DNA of 11,593 nucleotides from a virus. Numbering within the stretch: the stretch's first letter is position 1; each line of letters begins with the position of its first letter. The DNA lies in UHGV virus genome UHGV-1887975. One strand, given 5' to 3'. Position numbers and translations under genes: made by a program. The notes under the pieces were generated by a model, which made no database searches, was not told where the DNA came from, and saw nothing but the letters and a program-made list of their open reading frames with translations. Positions 142 through 11,593 of the stretch are shown in pieces.

Positions 142-148
142 ATAAAGT

Positions 149-156
149 CTATTCGG
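149..156. repeat. attP' arm inverted repeat CTATTCGG, partner of 11498-11505
   Basis: It is the perfect reverse complement of CCGAATAG at 11498-11505. The two arms lie 7 and 8 nt from the core, so they are symmetric about TGA|CCC in the core. Confidence 0.65.
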
Positions 157-258
157 TTTTCTTTAGATGTTCGCCTCACATAATCTTCAAGTGATGTTCC
201 TTACATCTCCCTAGAGCGTTAAGATAGTTAACTGATTGAGTTTTCAGGGTATGAAAGG

Positions 259-924
259 ATGAGCAACACTACTGATTGGGGAAGCATGATAGCCAACATA
301 GTTATGGCTACTACCGCTGTCTGGGCTGCATTCAAAGCTAATGACTGGTTTAAAACCAAGCGTCTTGAGAGTGCTGAAAACTTCTATAAAGAAGTACACA
401 ATCTCCATAAACGTTACTATTCAGCTATCCAATACGTTGAGGATTCAAGAAGAATATTTGATAGTCAGTATGGGTTGCATTCGCCAATATCTGAACCTAA
501 AGACAAGTCATTGCAATGGGAGGTTAAATCGAACTCTTACAAAATCATCGCTGAACTAGATTATCTGGCATCGTCACTACAAATGATGGATGCAATGGGT
601 AACAAACTTAGCCCTAAATCGGCTTCACTGGTTAGTGATATGATGGAAGCACATGGACGATTCTGTAATGATGTGATGAACTTCAATGACTCAGTTTGGA
701 AGGTTATAAGGGCAGGTATAACTGAAGAGAACATCCCACATACGCGAGGCTATGTGAACGGCGATTACATGGCTATCCTTACCAGTATGGATGAACCTGT
801 AAGAATATCTTTTAAGTTAAAAGAAATCAGTTTTAAAGATTTTTACTTACATGAAACTACTATGCAGTCAGTAATAACGAGGCTGAAATCGCTTATCGCC
901 AGAACAGGTAAAAACAGGACATAA
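259..924 (+). CDS. Hypothetical membrane-anchored protein, 221 aa, with one N-terminal TM helix (about residues 9-25) and a helical soluble domain
   Basis: It is a long ORF and the first gene inside attL, on the same strand as the tonB promoter. The hydrophobic segment is MIANIVMATTAVWAAF. The SD (GAAAGG) abuts the ATG, so the exact start is uncertain. Confidence 0.7.
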   Translation: MSNTTDWGSMIANIVMATTAVWAAFKANDWFKTKRLESAENFYKEVHNLHKRYYSAIQYVEDSRRIFDSQYGLHSPISEPKDKSLQWEVKSNSYKIIAELDYLASSLQMMDAMGNKLSPKSASLVSDMMEAHGRFCNDVMNFNDSVWKVIRAGITEENIPHTRGYVNGDYMAILTSMDEPVRISFKLKEISFKDFYLHETTMQSVITRLKSLIARTGKNRT

Positions 925-1112
925 ACAGGTTAGTACCTATGCAATTTAACGGTATTTTTCCAAGTATCTATGCAATCCTACACAGATTCTATACAGTATC
1001 GACATAGTTTCCTTTTGGTATAACTTATTGAAATATATAAAGAATCTGTGAAGCCCCTTTTCAGGGTAAACTGTATCGTGTTAGTCGTCCCTCTCTCGAC
1101 TCCTAGAAAAGT

Positions 1113-1142
1113 GCTATATACAGGGCTATATAATGCTATATA
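1113..1142. repeat. Three tandem GCTATATA units (1113-1120, 1125-1132, 1135-1142), including a perfect TATAAT at 1129-1134
   Basis: Read directly, with a period of 10-12 bp. This could be a promoter cluster or an easily melted AT-rich element. Confidence 0.5.
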
Positions 1143-2591
1143 GATAGTTGGTCACATGGTGTAACTATCAAACTACTTAACAGTTTCCTACGTGAAAGTT
1201 AGAAAGTGATAGTTATAGTTACCTTGTCAAATCTTCGTAGTCCATTCTTAAAAAATCACTTACAGACACCTTAATATCTATACAGATTTCATGTAGAACA
1301 CGATTAGTGCGTAGAAGAGTCATTATGTTAAAAACGAACTGTATACGTATCAGTACTGATTTATAAGGGTTTTGTGTATTTGAAGATAAGAGGCTATACA
1401 GCACCTTGAGAGCATGTCTTCTAAGTCATTGATACATAAGGTCACAGAAGTTTGTGTCTGTTACAGAGAAAACTGGATAGGACTTCACAGAACTACAAAA
1501 TGTTACAGCTATTGATAGGTGAAATCTTCTTGATAGATGCCTTGAAGTGTGGTGAAGGTTTCTTGAGGTGGAGCTAAACAGATGCTATGAAGAAAGTCAA
1601 TAGTTGGTTATAGATATTTTAACTGCTTTTGCAAAGGGGGTGCTGTATCGTGAATCTGGGGTACTTAACAGCCATCAATCATGAGGTAGATTCTACCGAA
1701 TCAACTGTGTAGATATTTTTTAAGATTATCGGTGAAGGGGGAATGCAGAGGGGGGTACTACGATTTTTATAAAAATTTTCAGAAGCCAAATAACTACTGT
1801 GTATATTTTGCACAATCCTGCCAAACCTCATAGAAAGCTCTGTAGCGAGTTTTAACCCCATTTTTAGGGGTAACCTGTAGGGATGTACCACCCACCTTAA
1901 AATAAAGGGGTAAAATCGCTTAGAATGCGTTACAGAGCGTCTGAGAAGCTATATTCACAGATTTTACTAAAGTCTCAGACTTCTAAGTAGTCTTTTTAAC
2001 GGGAGGGTTCTTTCTCATGTATCACCCTCTCTTCCCGCTAAGTAAGCTACACAGACCTAGAGAACATGCCTTCACAGCATCTATATCAGGTCAGATTTAG
2101 AGGGTTTTGATAGAATTTTCAAAGGTACTTGACAGATAACTATGAAGTTGTTAGGAAGAATTGTTTAACGGGAGGAAAGATACGATATAACCCGAAGGGA
2201 AAGTATCATCTTAACAGTGATTGTAAGAGATACCTGAAAAGCTCCTCTTAACAGAACTACCAAGAAGAGAGGGAACGATAAGACCAGAGGTAGTGACCTG
2301 TTAAATAGTTCGTTTCAAAGCTCTTAAGAGTCTGTTAAGTAAGGGCTATGTGAACAATCTTACCATTTTGTCAATGCTCTTGTCTTTGACCTAAATCAAT
2401 AAAATGTATCGTTTGATATGGTTTTAAGCAAGATGGCTAAAAATCTTTTTAGAGGGGCGCTTCGCTTGTGTCACTATGTTCTTTCTCTCCCTGTCTAAGA
2501 GGGGGGTTACAGAGGTCTTTCAAGTCTCAATAGACAAACCGAGGAACGCAGGAAACCGAGGGAAGAAAAACTATTGTGATTACCCTGAACA

Positions 2592-2625
2592 AGGTCTGTA
2601 AAGGTCGTTTAAGAGGTCGGTTAAG
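2592..2625. repeat. Three tandem iteron-like units: AGGTCTGTAA, AGGTCGTTTAAG, AGGTCGGTTAAG
   Basis: Read directly. The units are contiguous with a period of 10-12 bp. Confidence 0.6.
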
Positions 2626-2749
2626 AAAGGAGCTTCCCTCTCTGGGGTTGTCGCTCTTCTCTCGCTTGGTGGATTGATTAGGGGGTATGTTATACAAGCC
2701 CAACTAAGAAGACCTCTGAAGCTTACCTGTGAAGAAGCTGAACAGCTAT

Positions 2750-2802
2750 TATATTGGGTGATTACAACTCATTGAAAAATAAGCATTTTTAGAAATCACT
2801 GT
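2750..2802. repeat. 53-bp direct repeat, copy 1
   Basis: 49 of 53 positions match 2844-2896, at an offset of 94 bp. Confidence 0.85.
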
Positions 2803-2843
2803 TAAGGTTGCAGAGTTGTCTGTGAGGAGACTTGTCTGCTCTC

Positions 2844-2896
2844 TATATTGGGTGGTTACAACTTATTGAAAAATAAGAACTTTTAGAAATCACTGT
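2844..2896. repeat. 53-bp direct repeat, copy 2
   Basis: 49 of 53 positions match 2750-2802. Confidence 0.85.
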
Positions 2897-2998
2897 CAGA
2901 GAGGTGAATACTTGATAGATACAGCTTTCCGGTTCTGTCAAGTCATTTTTTAATAGATAGCATAAAATGCTAAAGATACCCCTATACCATCACGTACA

Positions 2999-3026
2999 GG
3001 GGGTTTTGAAGGGGGTTTAACGGGGG
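2999..3026 (+). repeat. Three G5 tracts at 11-12-nt spacing: AGGGGGTTTTGA, AGGGGGTTTAAC, GGGGG
   Basis: G5 runs at 2999-3003, 3011-3015 and 3022-3026. The third run overlaps the last codons of the minus-strand small ORF. Confidence 0.6.
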
Positions 3027-3193
3027 TCTGTGTGGTCATTATCCTTAAGGTCAAGCGTCCATGTACGACCGAACAGTTTAAAGACAACAAGCACTCTGAC
3101 GAGGACGTAGCGAAGTAGCAGGCCTGCAATAAGTCCAATACCTCCACCAGCCCATACATCAGGTGACCCCAATTCTGGAGGGAGATTTACCAT
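3017..3193 (-). CDS. Small single-pass membrane protein, 58 aa (MVNLPPELGSPDVWAGGGIGLIAGLLLRYVLVRVLVVFKLFGRTWTLDLKDNDHTDPR)
   Basis: The ATG at 3193 is preceded by AAGGA with a 6-nt spacer on the minus strand. The protein has a clear hydrophobic helix, and the segment is locally GC-richer than its surroundings. The track's longer version (to 3235) begins at a TTG with no SD. Confidence 0.4.
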   Translation of the reverse strand: MVNLPPELGSPDVWAGGGIGLIAGLLLRYVLVRVLVVFKLFGRTWTLDLKDNDHTDPR

Positions 3194-3410
3194 TAAATTT
3201 CCTTGTAAGACGCTCTCAATCGCATTCTGACACAAAAAAGTACCTGACCTTATAGTTGACCTGAAGAGGCCATTTAACTCGTTACAGAGCGATTGAAGAG
3301 GTCTGTGTGCAATGCAATAACCATGTGACCACTCTCATAGCCACGCCTCATATTTTACTCTCCCCATAGAACCATTATACCACAGATGTTAATGAAATGT
3401 TAAAAAGTGC

Positions 3411-3439
3411 TTGACATTAGTCTTTGAAAATGCTAGTAT
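3411..3439 (+). promoter_or_regulatory. Strong sigma70 promoter for the rightward operon: TTGACA (3411-3416), 17-nt spacer, extended -10 TGcTAGTAT (3431-3439)
   Basis: Hexamers and spacing are read directly. It is followed by two TTAACA boxes (3450-3455, 3461-3466) one helical turn apart, in an operator position. Confidence 0.65.
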
Positions 3440-3487
3440 TGTATATAAGTTAACAGAGGATTAACAATTATAAGGACTAGCTTATGA

Positions 3488-4042
3488 ATGAACGACAGAG
3501 AATTTAGAGCGATGCTTCAGGCATCAAGAGAACGCAACAAGCACAACTCCTACGCTTACACAAACAACCCCACCAGCTACGAACTACCAGCCTTTTCCAA
3601 ATCCGAACGTAAAAGCATTGAAGCGGTCATTCGTAGCATTACGCCACGAGGCAGATATATGCCAACACGCAAAACAACAAAGAATAACTTAAAAACTTTC
3701 TTGATGAGTTTTGACAGCTACGAACAATTACCGTCACGAATTGAAGATGTAATTATCGGCACTTGTCGCAGCTTTGGAAGGGATAACTATCACCGGAAAG
3801 TTTTCTATTTGCTTCGAAGCCTTGATGAGATTAACTCAAGCACAGTGACGAGCCATCTTCAAAGACAAGCAACCAGACTTAGCCACGAGCTACCATCTGA
3901 TAAGTATTGCGCTAATTTAACCACCATTTGCAATAAAGTTATCGAGACAATCAATCATCATGTTGGGGTTGGTAATATCAGCCTTACGACCAGTGAGCCA
4001 GACTTTGAATTTGACGTATACGCACAAGCAGAGGAATTTTAA
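3488..4042 (+). CDS. Hypothetical protein, 184 aa
   Basis: It is the first ORF downstream of the 3411 promoter. Its stop lies 1 nt before the next start. The SD is weak or distant. Confidence 0.7.
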   Translation: MNDREFRAMLQASRERNKHNSYAYTNNPTSYELPAFSKSERKSIEAVIRSITPRGRYMPTRKTTKNNLKTFLMSFDSYEQLPSRIEDVIIGTCRSFGRDNYHRKVFYLLRSLDEINSSTVTSHLQRQATRLSHELPSDKYCANLTTICNKVIETINHHVGVGNISLTTSEPDFEFDVYAQAEEF

Positions 4043-4043
4043 A

Positions 4044-4325
4044 ATGGGAAATAAACACACACTAACCAGAGTTACAAAGACAGCCTTTGAAGAACTTAAC
4101 CGAATCAAAAACATTACAGGTCTGCCACACTCAGCAGTGATGAAGCTTGCAATTAACCGTGATATTAACGAGCAGGATTTGCTTAATAGTCGTTTAGAGG
4201 CAGCAAGACACCATATCAGGATTAAGCAAGATGACCTTGATAGTCTGAAATCTTTAAATGCTTTTGGACTGGATTTAGCAAGGTTACTAAGTATCAAAAT
4301 TCACAAATTAGCGATGGAGGTTTAA
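4044..4325 (+). CDS. Putative ribbon-helix-helix (CopG/Arc-like) DNA-binding protein, 93 aa
   Basis: The ATG at 4044 is preceded by GAGGA with an 8-nt spacer. The N-terminus HTLTRVTKTAFEELNRIKNITGLPHSAVMKLAINR follows the strand-helix-turn-helix pattern of CopG-type RHH proteins. The track's 3960 start overlaps the upstream gene. Confidence 0.7.
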   Translation: MGNKHTLTRVTKTAFEELNRIKNITGLPHSAVMKLAINRDINEQDLLNSRLEAARHHIRIKQDDLDSLKSLNAFGLDLARLLSIKIHKLAMEV

Positions 4326-4711
4326 TGTATGACTTTTATAAACATCGTGACCATTTGGTAAGATTTGACGGTAAAGTCTGGAAAGACGTAACACAAACCA
4401 ATAAGCCCAAGTTTACCCACCAGCAATTAGCCTCAAGATTTGATATCTGGGCTGAAGCACAAAAAGATAATGGTGATTTCGAGTTTATCAGAGGTTTTGA
4501 TTATGCTTACGAAAGCGACCTTAAAGACGCCATTGAATTAATGGAGAACTTCAACTCTATTAAAAATAGTGACAAGCACAAAGCCAACGGTAACAGATAC
4601 GATAAAGATTTAATCATTGATGCAATCACCAAAGGACAATCACAAAGTTATATTTCTGAGAAATACGGCTTATCACGTAGTCAATACTACAAGATTAAAG
4701 CGTCTGTGTAA
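4325..4711 (+). CDS. Hypothetical protein with a C-terminal helix-turn-helix, 128 aa
   Basis: TAATG overlap with the upstream gene and a GGAGG SD. The C-terminus ITKGQSQSYISEKYGLSRSQYYKIK resembles resolvase/terminase-small-type HTH motifs. Confidence 0.75.
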   Translation: MYDFYKHRDHLVRFDGKVWKDVTQTNKPKFTHQQLASRFDIWAEAQKDNGDFEFIRGFDYAYESDLKDAIELMENFNSIKNSDKHKANGNRYDKDLIIDAITKGQSQSYISEKYGLSRSQYYKIKASV

Positions 4712-4849
4712 GTCTGTGAGAATGAGTGAGACTCAAAGATGAGCTACCCTATTACTAAGGTGTCTCACTCCCTCTGTAACCCGCATGGTTACTGGCCTCA
4801 GAATGGCTATTTTGGCAGATTTAAGATGTGTTTTTATAGGATTTTAAAA

Positions 4850-5173
4850 ATGAATAATTTCCCACTACAGATTTTTATTGATACCGACACCGCCATGATG
4901 ATTCAGGCTTTCACTGATGTAGGTGTTAGCATTGACTTTGATAAGTTGTTAGAGTTAATGGCTGATNATNCNGANANCATCTNTGACTTTATTCACTCGG
5001 TGGAGTTTAACGAGCCTCGAATGATGTTACCAATTACAGACAGTAATATGAAAAGATTGGTTATTGAGCAAACGAACAAATACAGTATTTCCCCAGAGCA
5101 ATTTTTGAAAGGTGCTGTGACAATCCTGTACAGCGATAATATTTTGGTTACGGATTCCGTGAGGGTTCACTAA
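4850..5173 (+). CDS. Hypothetical protein, 107 aa, containing 6 ambiguous bases
   Basis: The ORF is in the frame of the track's 4739..5173 entry. The ATG at 4850 (MNNFPLQ...) is preferred because 4739-4849 holds two hairpins and encodes an atypical Cys/Trp/His-rich peptide. The start remains uncertain. Confidence 0.6.
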   Translation: MNNFPLQIFIDTDTAMMIQAFTDVGVSIDFDKLLELMADXXXXIXDFIHSVEFNEPRMMLPITDSNMKRLVIEQTNKYSISPEQFLKGAVTILYSDNILVTDSVRVH

Positions 5174-5250
5174 TGGGCTTAATAATTGCTTGGACGTTGC
5201 TTGGCTTATTTGTTGGTTGCTGGGTGGGTAACACAGTAAATAAGAATTGA
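5173..5250 (+). CDS. Tiny hydrophobic peptide, 25 aa (MGLIIAWTLLGLFVGCWVGNTVNKN)
   Basis: TAATG start/stop overlap with the upstream gene. GAGGG SD at 5161-5165 with a 7-nt spacer. The sequence is TM-like. It falls below the ORF-track length cut-off. Confidence 0.45.
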   Translation: MGLIIAWTLLGLFVGCWVGNTVNKN

Positions 5251-5273
5251 TGTTATCAATCTGTTAAAAGCTG

Positions 5274-5302
5274 TTGACAAATAACCTTAAGCATGAGATG
5301 AT
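5274..5302 (+). promoter_or_regulatory. Candidate sigma70 promoter: TTGACA (5274-5279), 17-nt spacer, GATGAT (5297-5302)
   Basis: The -35 is perfect but the -10 is mediocre. It lies in a 495-nt intergenic gap. Confidence 0.3.
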
Positions 5303-5308
5303 GGTAAT

Positions 5309-5496
5309 AGGGGGCAACTCTTCCTGAATTAAACTATTAATCATTCTACATCAATGATAGTTATTCTGAGTTGGAAAGGTGCAATGCTTTTCGTCATGGC
5401 CTATTTAGCCCACACTAGATAGGCTATCTCAAAAAGTCTTTGTTTATTCATTGAATCCTTTACAGATTGCCCTAATCATGAGTTAGGGCGTTTTTT
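5309..5496 (+). ncRNA. Candidate sRNA of about 190 nt, between the 5274 promoter and the 5469-5496 terminator
   Basis: This rests only on the promoter-terminator pairing in an intergenic region. It contains an internal stem GCCTAT/ATAGGC and a 22-aa hydrophobic mini-ORF (5354-5422) that has no SD. Confidence 0.25.
5469..5496 (+). terminator. Rho-independent terminator: GCCCTAA / TTAGGGC stem, 7-nt loop, then GTTTTTT
   Basis: The 7-bp perfect stem (5469-5475 / 5483-5489) and the T-run (5491-5496) are read directly. Confidence 0.65.
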
Positions 5497-5667
5497 AAGA
5501 GTTTTTAAAGAAATTTCTTCACCAGCCCTTTATAGCGTTTTAGTTATCTAGGGCTTTTTCAGCTTTTAAAAAGCATACTTGGCAAACGCTTTTAAGTCTC
5601 TTCTAAGTTCGTAGGCTGTCAGGTGTGCTTTTTAAAAACTGAATATTACTTAGAAGAGGAAAAAACA

Positions 5668-6378
5668 ATGACAAACGATTTATATATTAACGGCAGAAAG
5701 ATTGATAGCTTCGGGGACTGGTCACCACAGGGTGAACATCCGCTACATACTATTCAGCGTAAAGAACACGATGAAAGAATTAAGCTTGAGCAAGAGTTAA
5801 AGATGTCACCAAAGGTAATTTCCTTTGTGTCTCCTGAGCCTCAAGAAATGCCTGATGTATGCAAAACTGAAGCACTATTTAATCTTGAGCGTGAATATTA
5901 CCCACTGCTAAAAGCACAGCGTATTAAACTAGATGACGCTTACAGCAAAGTTACCCTGATGCAATCAGCTATTGAGCCATCAGAATTTGAGATTCAGGAT
6001 GAATTGTCACAGAAACCATTTGTCTATTACAAATATGAAGACAATGATGGTTTTGGTACTTTTCCTGAGAATATCCCAGACGTGATTAATAATCTTCCTG
6101 ATGGATATCGAATTGTGAAGATGGTTAAAGCTTCAAGAGGTGCTGGTCAGTTTATTTTCATGACCGATAGGAGCGATGAAGAACTCTGTGAAATTGCTAA
6201 ACAGAACATCTTAGCATCACGTAACAAGCAACTTGAAAATGTTAAGTTGTATCTCTCAAGAGAGCTTCAGGCTATGAAAGAGCTTGTTAGTGAATATGAA
6301 TCACAGAAGAAGATTGCTATGCAGGCTGATATTGAGCAGTTAGTGAAGATTTCTCAGAAATATGCAAAGGCACTTTAA
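5668..6378 (+). CDS. Hypothetical protein, 236 aa, with a coiled-coil-like C-terminus
   Basis: The ATG at 5668 is preceded by AGAGGA with a 7-nt spacer. The track's 5623 start is a GTG inside the GTGTGCT motif. Confidence 0.75.
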   Translation: MTNDLYINGRKIDSFGDWSPQGEHPLHTIQRKEHDERIKLEQELKMSPKVISFVSPEPQEMPDVCKTEALFNLEREYYPLLKAQRIKLDDAYSKVTLMQSAIEPSEFEIQDELSQKPFVYYKYEDNDGFGTFPENIPDVINNLPDGYRIVKMVKASRGAGQFIFMTDRSDEELCEIAKQNILASRNKQLENVKLYLSRELQAMKELVSEYESQKKIAMQADIEQLVKISQKYAKAL

Positions 6379-6402
6379 CTATGAATTAAAAGGAGGTGGT
6401 GA

Positions 6403-6606
6403 ATGATTGATTTAACAGAACGCTATGAGCTTATTAAAGCAATTAGTGAACGATTGAAAGAACAACCCAACAAACCAAAACGAATCAAATCATCCACCTC
6501 TAAGCAAAAGAATAGAATCAGAAGAATCGCTAAATGGTGTCTTGATAAATTACCAAGTGATTGTCAGATTGTCGGTGAAGATGGTAATTATTATCTGGTT
6601 AGGTAA
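6403..6606 (+). CDS. Small basic hypothetical protein, 67 aa
   Basis: Strong SD (AAAGGAGGTGGTGA then ATG). Lys/Arg-rich centre. Followed by a terminator. Confidence 0.7.
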   Translation: MIDLTERYELIKAISERLKEQPNKPKRIKSSTSKQKNRIRRIAKWCLDKLPSDCQIVGEDGNYYLVR

Positions 6607-6631
6607 AAAGATTGGTTGGGTAAAAATCAAC

Positions 6632-6672
6632 GGGAGAGATTATCGAGTGACATCGGTAGCTCTCCCTTTTTT
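6632..6672 (+). terminator. Rho-independent terminator: GGGAGAG / CTCTCCC stem followed by TTTTTT
   Basis: Stem arms at 6632-6638 and 6660-6666, and the T-run at 6667-6672, are read directly. Confidence 0.7.
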
Positions 6673-6700
6673 GTATATGAGATAGTCTTCTATCGAATCC

Positions 6701-6802
6701 TGTGTGCTACGTGATGATTCGGATAAGAATTATCCTCATGAAATCTGTAAAACTAATACCCACACTGAAAAATAGAATTTACGTACAACACGCTTAAAGA
6801 GG
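6701..6802 (+). promoter_or_regulatory. Conserved GTGTGCT-box intergenic element, copy A, upstream of the tape-measure gene
   Basis: It shares GTGTGCTACGTGA (6702-6714) and the block TACCCACACTGAAAAATAGAATTTACGTACAACACGCTTAAAGAGG (6757-6802) with copy B. The two ends can pair (6701-6714 with 6779-6792, with 2 internal mismatches). Confidence 0.55.
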
Positions 6803-6812
6803 TGAAACATGA

Positions 6813-8936
6813 ATGAGCAAATTCACAGTTGATAGTTTTATCGTTGAGCTAGGCTTCAATGAAAACGTTATTAAGGGACTGCAAAGAGTTGAAAAGGCAG
6901 CTTTGCAGTCAGCACAAAGAATTGAAAAGAACCTAAATAAAGGTTTCAGGATTAATACAAAGCAGCTTGATAGTAATTTAACGGCTTCTTTAGGGCAGCT
7001 TGAAAGGAAGTTTAATAAGGCCTTTGACAAGATTGAACAGAGAGCAAGAAATACTAAAGCTTTCCAGTTTACCACCAGATTTAATGACACTGTTAATCCT
7101 CCAAAACAACCAAGACAGCCACGAATTAGCGGAAACAGAGCAATCACAGCAGCTTACTCAGCGAATATGAGCAAGCTAAAAGGCCTTAACCCAATTGTCG
7201 AGAAATACATTAAGAGTCAGTTTTACGGGCTATCTGCTAAAGCCGGGTCAATGGATTCTTCAAAATTCAATGAGAAGTTAGCTCAGTTAAACGCTTCAGT
7301 CAGAGAAGCAATTGCTAAAGCCAGAGGTCATACATCCACCAGCATTAATGGTGACAGAGCAGCTAATAGTCTTGATAACCTGTCTTCAGCAGCAGTTAAA
7401 ACAGCAGGTGCATTTATCTCAATGCAGGCTGTATTAGCCAGTTATCAGAAGATTATGGAAATTGGTTTACAGCGTGCAAGTGCTGAACGTTCAATTGATT
7501 TCGTATTTGATAAAGATGCAGGTCAGGTAAAAGAGTTCACAAAGTCATTAGCTCAAACAACGGGTTTAGATATCGCTGAACTGCAATCACAGTTTGCTGG
7601 TTTTGGTGCTTCAGCTAAAGAGTCTATGGGTATTCAAGGTTCTGAAGAACTTTTTAAAAATATGATTGGCTATGCTCGTCTGATGGGGAGAAGTGAAGAA
7701 GAGATTAAGCGAGCACTGACAGCATTATCACAGATGGCTGGTAAGGGTCAGATTATGGCTGAAGAGCTTAAGGGGCAACTGGCTGAAGCTGTTCCTGGTA
7801 TGGTTCAGGTATTCGCTAAAGCAACCGGAAAGACTGAACAGGAATTATTTGATGCCATGAAGAAGGGGGCTTTAAAATCTGCCGATACTCTTCAGAAGGT
7901 CACTCAGGAACTGAATAAACAAATCACCGCTAAAGGTGGCTGGAAAGCCATTTCAGAAAGTACTCAGGCACAACTAGGGAACTTGAAAAACTCTTGGAAT
8001 ACCACGCTTGATAGTATCTTCAGAGGTTCTGAAAATGGTCTGCAAGATTTTACACGAAGCCTAACAACGCTTTTAAACGCTCTTGGTGGAAGTGGTAAAA
8101 GTCTTGGTGAATCTCTTGGTAGTCTCATGACTTCTATGTCACATGGTGTCGATAGTCTGACCGATATTAGTTACAAGGTGCGAGCGTTCTTTGATGAGGT
8201 GACATTAGCTTACCGTTCACTAAATGACACTCAGAGGAAAATTGTTGATGGTTTATCTGATGGGTTAATTGATGGTTTGAAGATGCTTGCTGTGGCTGTT
8301 ACTGCTCAAAAGGCTGCAAATGTAGCTGGAGGCTTGTTAAACCTTGCAAATGCTGTTACTTCATTCGGTGATGCTGTTAATAAAGCTAAAGCTGGCAAGG
8401 CTGGTTCTTCAGGTGGTGCGCTAAGTAAAGTCGGTAGAGTTGTCCTTTATGCTGAGTTGGTAAACTTTGCTCTTGATAATTTAAACCCTGAAGCAGCTAA
8501 GAATCCGAACTTACACCAATCAGGTATTGGTACAGAAACAAACTTCAATCCTGAATACAAAGGCGATTCTAAACCAAACCAAATTAATGAGGGGTGGGCT
8601 AAGATTGGTAGTTCTATCGCTGACTGGTTTAATGGTGCAGCTAATAAAATTGCTAACTTACAAGAACCGATGAATAACTTCGTAAATAACACACAATCAA
8701 CTCCACCAGCTATCGACACGGTGAATATCAATGCTCAATTAGCTATGGCTGTATCAGAGTTAGGAAGAAAGGTTGATGCTTTAACAGTAGAAGCTCGGAA
8801 GCCTTTATCAGTTAATATCAAAGGTGAAGCAATTGTTAGGCCGGATGAGCCATCTTTCTTTAATTTCAATCAATCAGCTAATGACCAGTTCACGCAGGAT
8901 ATGCTCTTAAGTTCAAGCTATCCAGAGGAAGAATGA
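6813..8936 (+). CDS. Tail tape measure-like protein, 707 aa
   Basis: The central segment ALSQMAGKGQIMAEELKGQLAEAVPGMVQVFAKATGKTEQELFDAMKKGALKSAD matches the conserved tape-measure core motif known from lambda H/TP901-type TMPs. The protein is long, helical and Ala/Gly/Ser-rich. GAGGTG SD with an 8-nt spacer. Confidence 0.85.
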   Translation: MSKFTVDSFIVELGFNENVIKGLQRVEKAALQSAQRIEKNLNKGFRINTKQLDSNLTASLGQLERKFNKAFDKIEQRARNTKAFQFTTRFNDTVNPPKQPRQPRISGNRAITAAYSANMSKLKGLNPIVEKYIKSQFYGLSAKAGSMDSSKFNEKLAQLNASVREAIAKARGHTSTSINGDRAANSLDNLSSAAVKTAGAFISMQAVLASYQKIMEIGLQRASAERSIDFVFDKDAGQVKEFTKSLAQTTGLDIAELQSQFAGFGASAKESMGIQGSEELFKNMIGYARLMGRSEEEIKRALTALSQMAGKGQIMAEELKGQLAEAVPGMVQVFAKATGKTEQELFDAMKKGALKSADTLQKVTQELNKQITAKGGWKAISESTQAQLGNLKNSWNTTLDSIFRGSENGLQDFTRSLTTLLNALGGSGKSLGESLGSLMTSMSHGVDSLTDISYKVRAFFDEVTLAYRSLNDTQRKIVDGLSDGLIDGLKMLAVAVTAQKAANVAGGLLNLANAVTSFGDAVNKAKAGKAGSSGGALSKVGRVVLYAELVNFALDNLNPEAAKNPNLHQSGIGTETNFNPEYKGDSKPNQINEGWAKIGSSIADWFNGAANKIANLQEPMNNFVNNTQSTPPAIDTVNINAQLAMAVSELGRKVDALTVEARKPLSVNIKGEAIVRPDEPSFFNFNQSANDQFTQDMLLSSSYPEEE

Positions 8937-8950
8937 TTTCTTATATATAT

Positions 8951-9026
8951 CCGTGTGCTACGTGAAATCTTCTGAACGGATATACCCACTAAAAATTATT
9001 TTTTACGTAGCTCACGCTTAACAGAG
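8951..9026 (+). promoter_or_regulatory. Conserved GTGTGCT-box intergenic element, copy B, upstream of the 9102 gene
   Basis: GTGTGCTACGTGA at 8953-8965 and TACCCACTAAAAATTATTTTTTACGTAGCTCACGCTTAACAGAG at 8983-9026. The ends form a 16-bp stem with one mismatch (8952-8967 with 9001-9016). Confidence 0.55.
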
Positions 9027-9101
9027 AAAATACTTATATATCAAAGGTTTGGTTAAAAATGATTAAAATACACTAAGCCTTTGAAATCAAAGGAGAATTT
9101 A

Positions 9102-9872
9102 ATGATTTACACTAATCAGCTTCGTTACAGTGGCAAAGATGGTGTTTACTTCCATCTACAAGGCCAACCAGATAATTTCTTGTCACTATCAGCAACTGAG
9201 AACATGGAATATGACAGCCCTATGATGGTGACCACTCAAAATATGCAATCAGGGCAGACTGTAACAGATAATGTAATGCGTTCACCAAGAACTATTTCAA
9301 TCAGTGGTGTGGTTGTGGTTGGTGAATCCGGTAGTATCCTTATCTCAAGAGATAATAAGCTGGTGGAAAACTTCATAGACACTCTTGAAAACTGGCGTGA
9401 CCAGAAGCAAATTATCTCAGTTGTCTGTAAAGATGGTATTAAGATTGACGACTCAATTATTACAAGCTTTAAAGCCTCTAAAGATGTTGGTATTTCAAAC
9501 GGCCTAAGAATCCAGCTAACTTTTCAGGAAATCAACTTTAAAGCTATCGTAGGGCAAACTGATATTTCGACTGCTACTGGCAAGACCGCTACCACGAATG
9601 ATGGTGGTGCTACTTCTAAGAAGAATACAGGGAATACTACGACAAGTCTTGGAAGCCCTATGCTGACCTGTAAAGAGCTTTTTAGCTATTCGGCAAGTAA
9701 GTTATCAGATGAAGCGCTAAAAGCCCGTGTAACGTGCTCTAAGAGCGTTAGCGTTAAAAATGGTGAGAGCACCTTCACAGCCTCAGCTAATGAGCAAGCT
9801 TCAAAGGTGCTTAAGTCGGGTAATGCTTTACGGAAGTACTCTGTGAATCCGAATAAGAAGGGCACTTATTGA
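9102..9872 (+). CDS. Hypothetical tail-associated protein, 256 aa, named by position downstream of the TMP; the C-terminal half is Thr/Ser/Gly-rich
   Basis: The ATG at 9102 is preceded by AAGGAG with a 6-nt spacer. The track's 9081 start is a TTG. The function is inferred only from synteny with the TMP. Confidence 0.7.
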
Positions 9873-9881
9873 GACATAAAA

Positions 9882-9899
9882 AGGGGCTTCATAGCCCCT
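9882..9899 (-). terminator. Hairpin AGGGGCT / AGCCCCT between convergent genes, followed by a T-run on the minus strand; terminator for the integrase gene
   Basis: 7-bp perfect stem and 4-nt loop. The minus strand reads AGGGGCTATGAAGCCCCTTTTTAT. Confidence 0.65.
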
Positions 9900-9904
9900 G
9901 AAAA

Positions 9905-11425
9905 TTACAGTTGATAAGCGTCAATATCCAGTAGCTCTTTATCAGCAATTTCAAAGATTGGTGACCCATCATTTAGCGGTAACGGGTTTGTAGGTATGGT
10001 TATTTCAGTGTCGTTCTGTAGCGTTACAGTTACCGAATCCTTACCCAATGTCAGCCCCTTTAGATGCTTGGACAAAATCAACTGACACTCGACACGACCC
10101 GCTTTAGTTGTCAGGTCAATATCTTTAAGCTGGGGTAGTTCCTTATCAGTGAGTGAAGCCTTACGCCTCATGTTATCAATCGTGGTCTGTAGCTCTGTGC
10201 GCTTCTGGTTCAGTTCCTTAAGCTGAATTTTTAGTTCATCAATATCATCCATCTCAAGAAGTAGGGCGGTAGCTTTCTTGATTCTGGTTGTGACAATTTC
10301 AACCTCATGCTGTAGAGATGCAATCTTCCCCTCTGCTTCTCCATCATTCCCCACGTCAATCATCCCCAGAAAATTATCAATCATCCACTTATCAAACGGT
10401 TTACGCTTCAACGGAGGAACATCACAGCGACCATCAAGATGGTTATTGCACCGATAAACGCCCTGATACTTATTCTTAGTCCCTGTAGGGTGAACACTAG
10501 CCCCGCACTGACACCTAAACAGACCTTTGAAGATGTTAATCGTTAATGGATTATCACTTGCAGGTGTACGGCCTATACGGTTCTTACCAAGAATCTCTTG
10601 AGCTTTATTGAACGTTGAAGCATCTATAGCGGCTTCGTAGTAGTTCGGTATAGCGGGGCGGTCATTACGTTGTGATGCTGGTAACGTGCCTATCGTTGTC
10701 TCTGACCTTAAGATGGTGCGTACAGAGTGAACACTAAACCCGTTAGCATCTTTACGGCGACTAAACGACTTTATACCGTTGCTTTGAAGGTGACGGGCGA
10801 TGTTATGCAGACTTTCACCACTTAGCAGCAGCTTGAAAATCAGTCTTACAGTCTCAGCGTGTTCATTGAGTTTAAAAGTATCGGGGTCAATCCATCCGGG
10901 AACCATCTTTGTTAAACGTTGTTCACCAGCAAGGGCAAGTTTTGCACGTTGCTCCCATTTCTGAGAAACACGGAAAGACTTCTGCTTAGATTCCTGATGC
11001 GCTATGTAGGCTTTGACACGCTGGATGATTGAGATTCCTAAATCATCGGCTAAAGCATCCTTTGTGTAGATAAGACCATCTTGTAGCGTGTGAATCTCTA
11101 ACCCGTTGCCTAAGATGCGATTCATCAAGGCTTCTGTTTCAAGGTGTTCTAAGCGGCCTATACGGTCGATACTCTCAACAAGCAAAATCGTACCTTCTGG
11201 AAACTCCCCAGACTCAATACGGGCTAACATGTCACCAAACTGACCAGTAAGATGCTTACCTTTGTAACCGGATAGGCCTTCATCACTGAAAGACGCTACT
11301 ACTTGAGCATCGCTATTCTTCTTCAGCCACTGCTTGAACAGGTCGTTTTGTCGTCTGGTTGAATCTGCACCTTCAGCGCCTTGTATAGCTGAACTGTACC
11401 GAAGGTATGTAATTACGCTCCTCAT
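9905..11425 (-). CDS. Large serine recombinase (integrase), 506 aa
   Basis: N-terminal catalytic motif YLRYSSAIQ with downstream VESIDRIGR. Cys-rich zinc-ribbon segment CQCGASVHPTGTKNKYQGVYRCNNHLDGRC. C-terminal coiled coil. The gene lies adjacent to attR. Confidence 0.9.
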   Translation of the reverse strand: MRSVITYLRYSSAIQGAEGADSTRRQNDLFKQWLKKNSDAQVVASFSDEGLSGYKGKHLTGQFGDMLARIESGEFPEGTILLVESIDRIGRLEHLETEALMNRILGNGLEIHTLQDGLIYTKDALADDLGISIIQRVKAYIAHQESKQKSFRVSQKWEQRAKLALAGEQRLTKMVPGWIDPDTFKLNEHAETVRLIFKLLLSGESLHNIARHLQSNGIKSFSRRKDANGFSVHSVRTILRSETTIGTLPASQRNDRPAIPNYYEAAIDASTFNKAQEILGKNRIGRTPASDNPLTINIFKGLFRCQCGASVHPTGTKNKYQGVYRCNNHLDGRCDVPPLKRKPFDKWMIDNFLGMIDVGNDGEAEGKIASLQHEVEIVTTRIKKATALLLEMDDIDELKIQLKELNQKRTELQTTIDNMRRKASLTDKELPQLKDIDLTTKAGRVECQLILSKHLKGLTLGKDSVTVTLQNDTEITIPTNPLPLNDGSPIFEIADKELLDIDAYQL

Positions 11426-11467
11426 GGTGATAAACTCCCATGCAATTGATTCTCATTTAAAGATAAG

Positions 11468-11495
11468 CTTATAACCATTATGGCTAATGCTACAA
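11468..11495 (-). promoter_or_regulatory. Candidate integrase promoter on the minus strand: TTGTAG (-35, plus-strand coordinates 11490-11495), 16-nt spacer, TATAAG (-10, 11468-11473)
   Basis: Hexamers read from the reverse complement. It would give a leader of about 36 nt before the int ATG. Confidence 0.35.
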
Positions 11496-11496
11496 T
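11469..11496 (+). promoter_or_regulatory. Candidate island-borne outward promoter facing tonB: TTATAA (11469-11474), 16-nt spacer, extended -10 TGcTACAAT (11488-11496)
   Basis: Read directly. GCTACAAT recurs at 11505-11512. This is the only promoter-like sequence between the integrase gene and the tonB ATG. Confidence 0.35.
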
Positions 11497-11497
11497 G

Positions 11498-11505
11498 CCG
11501 AATAG
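11498..11505. repeat. attP arm inverted repeat CCGAATAG, partner of 149-156
   Basis: It is the perfect reverse complement of 149-156 and lies 8 nt from the core. Confidence 0.65.
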
Positions 11506-11513
11506 CTACAATA

Positions 11514-11526
11514 CAATGACCCTTGA
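11514..11526. repeat. attR core, CAATGACCCTTGA
   Basis: It is identical to 129-141 and contains the functional tonB ATG (11516-11518). Confidence 0.75.
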
Positions 11527-11593
11527 TTTACCTCGCCGCTTCCCCTGGCCGACGTTACTTTCGGTCTGCATTCATGGTGCTGTTGTGGCGGGG
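11516..11593 (+). CDS. tonB: TonB energy-transducer, 5' partial (first 26 codons; continues beyond the window)
   Basis: The translation MTLDLPRRFPWPTLLSVCIHGAVVAG matches the E. coli TonB N-terminus as I remember it. The reading frame is open to the window edge. Confidence 0.85.
   Translation, partial: MTLDLPRRFPWPTLLSVCIHGAVVAG

Follow-up and report, generated by a model that had tools for sequence, protein, structure and literature searches.

A gene-free block with similarity to the genome end of Felix O1-type phages in a satellite-like island of enterobacteria

Layout of the island

The 11,593-nt stretch analysed here (UHGV-1887975), called the window below and used for all coordinates, is a complete mobile island of about 11.4 kb, seated at the start codon of tonB; the island proper runs from 142 to 11515. 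Our main subject is the gene-free block at 925-3016. We give a probability of about one half to the reading that this block is a cis-acting module mimicking the packaging site or DNA end of virulent Felix O1-type myoviruses (Ounavirinae), which the satellite-like island would exploit as helpers. The block appears to hold diverged pieces of the helper terminus, namely the right boundary of the direct terminal repeat (DTR) with approximately 130 bp of the DNA that follows, a hairpin belonging to the interior of the repeat and copies of a repeated word, and an origin is possibly combined with the packaging mimic. The layout of the island is as follows.

131-141: attL core ATGACCCTTGA, equal to the tonB start; the island proper begins after it, and the same 11-mer is found at 11516-11526
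259-924, plus strand: p221, an orphan gene of 221 amino acids (aa)
925-3016: gene-free block, flanked by the convergent p221 (plus strand) and 58-aa gene (minus strand)
3017-3193, minus strand: 58-aa membrane protein
3144-8710, minus strand: oriented array of Chi sites (CCACCAGC on the plus strand at 3144, 3570, 4417, 7336 and 8703), with an opposite Chi at 9359
3374-3439: predicted divergent promoters, TTAACA-18-TGnTATAAT at 3403-3374 (minus strand) and TTGACA-17-TAGTAT at 3411-3439 (plus strand)
3488-6606, plus strand: six small orphan genes
6775-9872, plus strand: tail-gene segment linking the island to its helper, with the next two genes
6813-8936, plus strand: tape-measure protein (TMP)
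9102-9872, plus strand: Dit-like baseplate protein
9905-11425, minus strand: large serine recombinase (integrase)
11516-11526: attR core ATGACCCTTGA, the actual tonB start, repeating the 11-mer of 131-141

Positions 60-130 are the tonB upstream region and 11516-11593 the 5' end of the gene, so the native upstream region has been moved 11.4 kb away by an island seated at the exact start codon. As the insertion lies exactly at the tonB start, expression of tonB must come from island-end sequence. In E. coli UTAK-18 a copy of the island that is 99.8% identical occupies the yciI-tonB interval. SpLE2 of E. coli O157:H7 Sakai was considered as the same element and ruled out, being of the CP4-44 type with yeeS, yeeT and cbeA.

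TMP and Dit are the only recognisable virion genes of the island. Searches with the island proteins in Pfam, PHROGs, NCBIfam and PADLOC found no capsid, terminase, portal, replication or defence family, and no replication initiator, primase or helicase was recognisable among these proteins. As in satellites generally, the island has its own integrase and an incomplete set of virion, packaging and replication genes. The small island proteins had no match in Pfam, PHROGs, NCBIfam, PADLOC or PDB sequence searches, except for a weak C-terminal helix-turn-helix (HTH) in p128, and the AlphaFold model of p184 (pLDDT 64.6) had no Foldseek match in the PDB (best E = 0.64).

Two further observations concern the orphan genes. 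The window has N bases at 4967-4983, inside the open reading frame (ORF) at 4739-5173, for which the UTAK-18 annotation has a shorter coding sequence (window-equivalent 4851-5174). A second gene-free stretch of about 490 nt (5174-5667) shows a promoter-like TTGACA site together with two or three hairpins that resemble terminators; its sole Rfam 'hit', mir-75 with E = 0.69, is noise.

The initial annotation had drawn the ORF-free region from 925 to 3410. This was correct for 925-3016 and, in that no ORF of at least 73 aa occurs between 925 and 3487, for the lack of long ORFs, but not for 3017-3410, where there is a real 58-aa gene with divergent promoters. The 58-aa ORF is intact in 11 of 11 relatives with 93-98% aa identity, has its start fixed by an upstream stop codon in one of them (L011), is annotated in some genomes and is predicted to encode a single-pass membrane protein; it also contains the first Chi site (3144-3151). 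The other short ORFs of the region are truncated or contain stops in most relatives. The near-consensus promoter predicted at 3403-3374 serves the 58-aa gene and diverges from the neighbouring sigma-70 promoter that belongs to the 184-aa operon. Another feature of this interval is a 27-nt segment just upstream of the 58-aa start (3202-3228), which is an 81% inverted repeat of 1922-1948; the two could form an operator pair or a trans-acting antisense arrangement.

Repeated words and the nature of the block

The repeats and the strand bias reported earlier for the region were found again when compared with shuffled sequences. There are 32 direct and 24 inverted pairs of exact 10-mers, against about 5 and 5.6 after shuffling (not reached in any of 300 shuffles), and an equal-length coding control had 12 direct and 2 inverted pairs. 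Runs of four or more G number 13 on the plus strand, compared with five such C runs; dinucleotide shuffles gave 5.5 +/- 1.8 G runs, and 13 was reached in 0 of 500. The pyrimidine tract CCCTCTCT is present at 1089, 2025 and 2636, and the four 10-mers quoted as two complementary pairs lie where they had been placed and pair exactly. These pairs are not special, however, but belong to a general, orientation-symmetric excess of short words.

The dominant repeat, which had been missed, is a word family YTnACAG (cTTaACAG, gTTACAG, cTAtACAG), with about 29 copies on the plus strand and about 20 on the minus strand, where about 9 per strand are expected. Several longer repeats occur in or beside the block.

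1444-1511, plus strand: two iteron-like units of about 43 nt, each with CACAGAA followed by GTTACAG 18-19 nt further on
1837-1939: inverted pair of the 12-13-nt motif C(T/G)CG(T/C)TACAGAGC, at 1837-1848 (minus strand) and 1927-1939 (plus strand)
2750-2802 and 2844-2896, plus strand: direct repeat of 53 nt in two copies, 92% identical
3210-3291: second inverted pair of C(T/G)CG(T/C)TACAGAGC, at 3210-3222 (minus strand) and 3279-3291 (plus strand), between the 58-aa gene and its promoter

The motif pair at 3210-3291 is a candidate operator, as judged from its sequence and position. The pair at 1837-1939 sits in a stretch (1875-2025) that is 90-100% conserved, and the iteron-like units lie in the best-conserved non-coding stretch (1325-1525, conservation 0.93-0.97). 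Overall, 925-3016 is 80-95% conserved in relatives, which is equal to or above the coding genes. Loss of the region or of its motifs from homologous islands, which would have spoken against a function, is thus not what we see, as both region and words are kept there.

One proposal was that the plus strand of the block gives rise to one or several long, structured non-coding RNAs. The excess of G over C on this strand would fit, as would 12 promoter-like matches where shuffles gave 6.9 +/- 2.8. However, fold z-scores in sliding 120-nt windows were at background on both strands (mean 0.0 for plus, -0.25 for minus), the same as in the coding control, and neither Rfam (E <= 1) nor ARAGORN found a relevant RNA or tRNA in the gene-free region. 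The G runs are conserved no better than background in relatives (0.80 vs 0.82), and the quoted 10-nt pairs fall within the general word excess. Direct and inverted word pairs are equally enriched, which argues for sites in double-stranded DNA and not for RNA helices. We therefore consider a structured RNA extremely improbable.

Signs of decayed coding DNA were not found either. Searches of the window by tblastn with the cargo genes that relatives carry in this region detected no remnants in the block, and among the short ORFs only the 58-aa gene is conserved. The block is thus most likely neither an RNA gene nor the wreck of old genes, and most likely acts as double-stranded DNA.

Similarity to the helper phage genome end, GATC absence and Chi polarity

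A BLAST search of 2.3 Gb of phage DNA gave hits for window 1596-1730 in unannotated sequence of 43 Ounavirinae genomes, at E-values of 2e-9 to 4e-11. The matching phage DNA is a gene-free zone of about 1.7 kb between convergent gene blocks, and many GenBank phage records begin or stop within it. In phage D4 (L015 and L016) there is an exact DTR of 581 bp (the helper DTR being given as 581-611 bp), and the D4 length agrees with the 581 bp given by PhageTerm for the DTR of Felixounavirus Pr103Blw (PMC8303462). A duplicated block in phage ST56 shares both D4 boundaries; with a slash marking the boundary, the left one in both phages reads ...AAATGCTA/GCCCCCTTAACA... (GCTA/GCCCCCTTAACA) and the right one ...GTTAAGGGCTACC/AAGCAG... 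(GGGCTACC/AAGCAG). The pieces of the island that resemble this region are the following.

903-932, plus strand: three AACAGG words at 10-11 bp spacing, from a tandem repeat search; 913-932 resembles D4 707-726 (ACAGGcATAAACAGGcTTA), a weak patch seen by direct reading
1596-1800, plus strand: patch homologous to the helper genome end, spanning the equivalent of the right DTR boundary and including AGATATTTTT and an AT-rich palindrome
1678-1706: 29-nt core, ATCATGAGGTAGATTCTACCGAATCAACT, without a difference from Felixounavirus; its palindrome GGTAGAtTCTACC lies at 1685-1697
2259-2320: hairpin patch CTACC...AGGGAACGATAAGA...GGTAG, homologous to the DTR interior (D4 255-318)
2998-3027, plus strand: tandem G-run units AGGGGGTTTTGA / AGGGGGTTTAAC / GGGGGTCTGTG with a period of 11-12

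The island-phage alignment takes in about 60 nt of the repeat and runs about 130 nt past its right boundary, and the boundary equivalent in the island is ...CTGGGGTACT/TAACAG... at approximately 1665/1666. Over about 200 bp the patch is about 74% identical and includes 29 identical bp; the AT-rich palindrome TTTTATAAAAATTTT at 1763-1779 is common to island and phage. The island therefore has significant similarity to the helper segment in which the virion genome ends form. A 42-mer at this boundary is nearly invariant in nine relatives, although in the rest of their sequence these are 80-90% identical. As a candidate for the left boundary, AGCCCCTTTT at 1052, 613 nt upstream of the mimic, was rejected because it is not conserved in relatives. 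The units at 2998-3027 look, by inspection only, like the DTR-end units of the phage, GGGGATGTTAc / aGGGATGTTAA / GGG.

The boundary patch, of which there are two variants, is present in the window, L001, L008-L012, L017, L018, L020, L021, L023 and L024. The window type best matches Felixounavirus, and the type found in Salmonella, E. albertii and L010 islands (L024/L010/L020) best matches Suspvirus and Mooglevirus-type phages. The hairpin patch at 2259-2320 is retained in most relatives, the Salmonella one included. Convergent genes flank both the block and the phage terminal region, a setting that speaks against a promoter role.

The 29-nt core behaves as a small insert, found in some phages and islands and missing from others, in the manner of a miniature mobile element or a homing scar. 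The insert (GGTAGAtTCTACC, or in extended form GGTwGATTAGGGGTTGGTACAAGmCCAACTA) was also seen at about 2260-2310 of L008 and about 50-100 of L023.

The similarity extends to the words. In D4, TGTTAA/TTAACA reaches 14 and 12 per 500 nt in the two DTR copies compared with 0.89 on average over the genome. Among the 7-mers of the island block CTGTTAA ranks first, with 8 copies where 0.8 are expected, and its enrichment in the phage zone is equal (7 vs 0.5); in all, about 45-50 dispersed copies in the block belong to a word family overlapping the phage (C)TGTTAA. Across relatives the block words are conserved above their spacers (0.90 vs 0.81, p = 2e-6), and this holds across the whole block. In the phage, the words are arranged in tandem exactly 11 bp apart (14 neighbour pairs; periodicity z = 7.8 at 10.5 bp). 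A simple copy of the DTR array was rejected, as the island words, unlike those of the phage, are not helically phased. The block is instead a rearranged relative of the DTR repeat with extra sites of its own, among them the two iteron-like units and the inverted motif pairs, because the word architectures differ and several island words are not enriched in the phage.

Outside the block, only TMP and Dit of the island have D4 homologs, and they are an adjacent pair in the phage too. The Dit gene is 79-84% identical at the nt level to its counterparts in Felixounavirus from E. coli and Salmonella, and its product is 70% identical at the aa level to that of D4. TMP has 28% aa identity to D4 overall, and its 5' and 3' ends are 75-97% identical in nucleotides. 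It is a mosaic, in which the 5' end with its upstream sequence (6775-6925) is 75% and the last 30 nt 97% phage-like at the nt level, with the body at 28% aa. This suggests, at the level of sequence, an altered tape measure that could still dock to helper tail parts. Upstream of both TMP and Dit (6700-6800 and 8950-9025) there is an element made of GTGTGCTACGTGA, about 60 nt and TTACGTAnnnCACGCTTAA, which is island-specific and absent from D4; the two copies may be a regulated pair of promoters.

The block has a match in 551 of 5,426 complete E. coli genomes (~10%), in islands attached at yciI-tonB, at yecE and near ymdF, and is also found in E. albertii and in one Salmonella assembly (L024, GCA_010244255.1). 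In this family it is always upstream of the 58-aa and 184-aa genes. The Salmonella island uses the same yciI-tonB site and is 84-86% identical to the window, compared with only 76-81% for its flanks, which indicates transfer between genera.

Cargo genes enter the block at three points (window ~1251-1711, ~1810-2028 and ~2474-2727) and encode, in different relatives (L009-L014, L020, L024), a Dam-like methyltransferase, an AP2/HNH protein or a small serine recombinase. This could indicate that the block is a regulatory region and landing pad for cargo, with the words as operators for island ribbon-helix-helix (RHH) or HTH regulators and the phage patches as recombination scars. The inverted motif pairs, of which one separates the 58-aa gene from its promoter, the mobile look of the 29-nt core and a further phage-derived scrap at a cargo site would all suit such a role. 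The scrap, a 79-nt patch at 426-504 of L018 that is 80% identical to D4 45928-46006, also points to continuing DNA exchange between islands and Ounavirinae phages. However, the boundary patch is far better conserved than its surroundings in E. coli, E. albertii and Salmonella enterica, and its variants match different helper lineages. With convergent flanking genes there is no gene to regulate over about 2 kb, and the words are above spacer conservation over the entire block and not just near promoters. We find this explanation quite unlikely, and return to the packaging or DNA-end mimic as the preferred reading.

Two properties of the island as a whole bear on the form in which its DNA may exist. 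The island proper has no GATC where 40-49 are expected, and D4 has none in 89,439 bp where about 300 are expected. No other island or phage fragment that was checked had any GATC either; in the chromosomal flanks its frequency was normal. It is curious that a Dam-like enzyme is carried by an element without any GATC.

The second property is the polarity of Chi, which stands at 5:1 in the window, where 0.05-0.17 sites are expected on each strand. L001, the near-identical copy in UTAK-18, also has 5:1, and other full-length members have 3:1, 5:1, 5:0 and 5:1. The sites are spread over different genes and reading frames, and cargo genes inside the block carry Chi in the island polarity irrespective of their own strand. 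Flanking DNA at two att sites is polarised the other way (6:3 and 6:2). The island therefore did not take its polarity from the chromosome, and an explanation by replichore was ruled out on this ground. The D4 helper-type phage has no Chi.

The five island sites are active for a RecBCD that enters on the block side and travels to the right. In recombinase-less lambdoid phages many Chi sites are oriented toward the open end, and the orientation of the packaging site sets that of active Chi (PMC12315714). The Chi polarity of the island indicates a polar, linear DNA phase. Attempts to place the DNA end by Chi spacing failed, as the Chi-free arc of 5.8 kb is within chance for five points on a circle.

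The word copies and the boundary mimic could also act as a decoy or sponge that titrates a helper protein binding the terminal repeat, or the terminase, or that provokes abortive cutting, in defence and not for transfer. This was among the initial proposals and is compatible with the same data as the packaging reading. About 50 word copies overlap the DTR word, the altered TMP and Dit could poison tail assembly, and satellites of virulent phages commonly pair parasitism with interference, as described in the PLE papers. However, a single-copy chromosomal locus titrates little unless it is amplified, the word architecture is unlike the phage array, and the Chi array with zero GATC points to selection on island DNA that survives as a replicating or linear molecule. 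A block that serves mainly as a decoy is therefore very unlikely in our view.

A candidate packaging module

The initial annotation had also offered a replication, partition or packaging field as in PLE satellites. Its packaging or DNA-end version is favoured by the helper-terminus homology, the shared DTR word, the zero GATC and the Chi array; for replication, no initiator was recognisable.

We infer the following course of events. During infection the island would excise by means of its own serine recombinase and be copied into concatemers by the helper replisome. The terminase or the terminal-repeat-binding machinery of the helper would then recognise the boundary mimic and cut at it, which would bring island DNA into helper virions. 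The resulting open end would be exposed to RecBCD, from which the one-directional Chi array would protect the genes to the right of the block, and the array may also promote RecA-dependent re-circularisation. The word field would bind the helper's terminal-repeat-binding protein, and perhaps island proteins, and may titrate the end-binding protein of the helper. The block may contain the origin as well.

More tentatively, and at somewhat less than even odds, the islands would be a widespread PLE-like satellite family of virulent Felix O1-type phages, in which the block is a packaging and end-processing module of the DTR junction. Life in the infected cell would have shaped their DNA, with every GATC purged as in the helper and with one-directional Chi sites co-opting RecBCD to protect the linear form or make it circular again.

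Several findings weigh against the packaging and DNA-end reading. Only the right DTR boundary has a counterpart in the island, so that a T7-style DTR cut is not simply transposable to it. The phage-derived patches are in a different order from that in the phage, and the words are dispersed (mean gap about 48 bp), in both orientations and unphased. The top island words CACAGA, ATACAG and GGGGGT are not enriched in the phage. The identical 29-nt core is mostly a dispensable insert, absent from some phages (D4) and from some islands, and in L023 it sits elsewhere, next to att. In L013 and L014 a recombinase gene takes the place of the left half of the boundary patch. Among the island proteins, none able to bind the block words was identified. 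With the 5.8-kb gap within chance, Chi polarity does not locate the end. Virome and metagenome contigs lacked the pattern of an attP junction, IMG/VR had no instance of a conserved 32-mer, and the two IMG/VR matches are integrated copies. Two stand-alone contigs of about 11.4-11.5 kb also turned out to be integrated copies, and no free, circular or packaged form was found.

Another, not exclusive, explanation is that the block is mainly an origin, with the words and the 43-nt units binding an initiator of the island or of the helper and with the phage patches secondary. Pairs of words at an iteron-like spacing of 18-25 bp occur 8 times where about 3.5 are expected, the 1444-1511 units included. 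The block also shares an AT-rich palindrome with the phage, and orphan genes for small, possibly DNA-binding proteins lie directly downstream. In PLE, ori and pac lie side by side in a non-coding region (10.1101/2024.04.22.590561). However, the island has no recognisable initiator, primase or helicase, no structural match was obtained for the p184 model, there is just one weak DnaA-box-like site, and the words are unphased and in both orientations. With TMP and Dit as the only proteins that have phage homologs, no helper initiator is mimicked at the protein level. A block that is mainly an origin is unlikely, and it would be compatible with the packaging mimic.

If the reading as a PLE-like satellite family is true, no such family would have been known before for a virulent coliphage/Salmonella typing phage, and its packaging mimic of a DTR boundary would be the first, which would extend packaging-signal mimicry from cos and pac to phages with direct terminal repeats. 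In the literature searched, neither a satellite of Felix O1-type phages, nor this island family, nor the DTR word array of these phages was described. Felix O1-type phages, the classic typing phages of Salmonella, also find use in therapy and biocontrol directed at E. coli and Salmonella. A common chromosomal island that parasitises or blocks them would affect therapy outcomes, host-range testing and gene transfer between Escherichia and Salmonella, and would offer a genetically tractable E. coli counterpart of the Vibrio PLE-ICP1 system. Zero GATC together with a Chi array set against the chromosomal polarity could serve as a simple computational signature for similar islands with phage-like linear DNA. 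The results also point to the DTR word array of Ounavirinae as a functional element.

Comparison with known systems

The closest parallel in layout is PLE of Vibrio, in which a 14-bp core within an 89-bp mimic of ICP1 pac lies in non-coding DNA beside the ori and is required for transduction, and in which RepA binds the iterons of the non-coding ori (10.1101/2024.04.22.590561). The island likewise has a large serine recombinase, no capsid or terminase genes, a virulent myovirus as presumed helper, and a multi-kb non-coding stretch with a segment like the helper packaging site and orphan small genes adjoining it. The mimic is of comparable kind, with 29 identical bp in about 200 bp (about 74%) in the island compared with 14 identical bp in 89 bp in PLE. 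However, the island is PLE-like in layout only, having no sequence or protein homology to PLE (RepA, CapR, TcaP, NixI, LidI etc.), and its hosts are enterobacteria and not Vibrio. Its helper packages by DTR and not by headful pac, and the island mimic accordingly spans a DTR boundary. Iteron-like units are present but a RepA-like initiator is not recognisable. TMP and Dit, the oriented Chi array and the GATC absence shared with the helper also set it apart from PLE.

Comparison with iteron origins gives a mixed picture, as the island has the two units of about 43 nt, word pairs at 18-25 bp and the AT-rich palindrome but no overall phasing and no identifiable initiator.

The terminal repeat of phage T7 is reportedly flanked by arrays of short repeats, and plasmids with the junction and an origin are said to be packaged as concatemers. 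The short-repeat arrays around the DTR, a recognition site close to the boundary and a route for packaging multimers of a small replicon are points of likeness, and 7-8 island units approximate one phage genome of 86-89 kb. The differences are that T7 belongs to another phage family and that the island has a single boundary counterpart.

A format for such packaging is known from PICMI of Vibrionaceae, small satellites of virulent phages that have no capsid-remodelling genes and are packaged as concatemers in full-size capsids (PMC10803314). By analogy, packaging of this type is plausible for the island. PICMI differ in having AlpA, a primase and a tyrosine integrase, in integrating next to fis and in lacking tail genes, and a packaging site is not identified in them.

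As for Chi, the lambdoid phages with no Rec module (LLS and relatives) also have many Chi sites in a single orientation and rely on host RecBCD and RecA (PMC12315714). They are, however, autonomous cos phages, whereas the island is an 11-kb element whose helper has no Chi.

Finally, P4 (with the cos of P2), SaPIbov5 and EfCIV583 are satellites that copy a helper packaging sequence and are in consequence packaged by the helper terminase (10.1101/2024.04.22.590561). The island also carries a resemblance to a helper packaging sequence, but these satellites have near-exact cos or pac sequences of temperate helpers, whereas the resemblance in the island is partial (about 74%), rearranged and set within a 2-kb field of words. 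Packaging-signal mimicry and a PLE-like non-coding ori and pac are thus already known, and what is new here is that an enterobacterial island with an oriented Chi array and its helper's lack of GATC carries a mimic of a DTR boundary.

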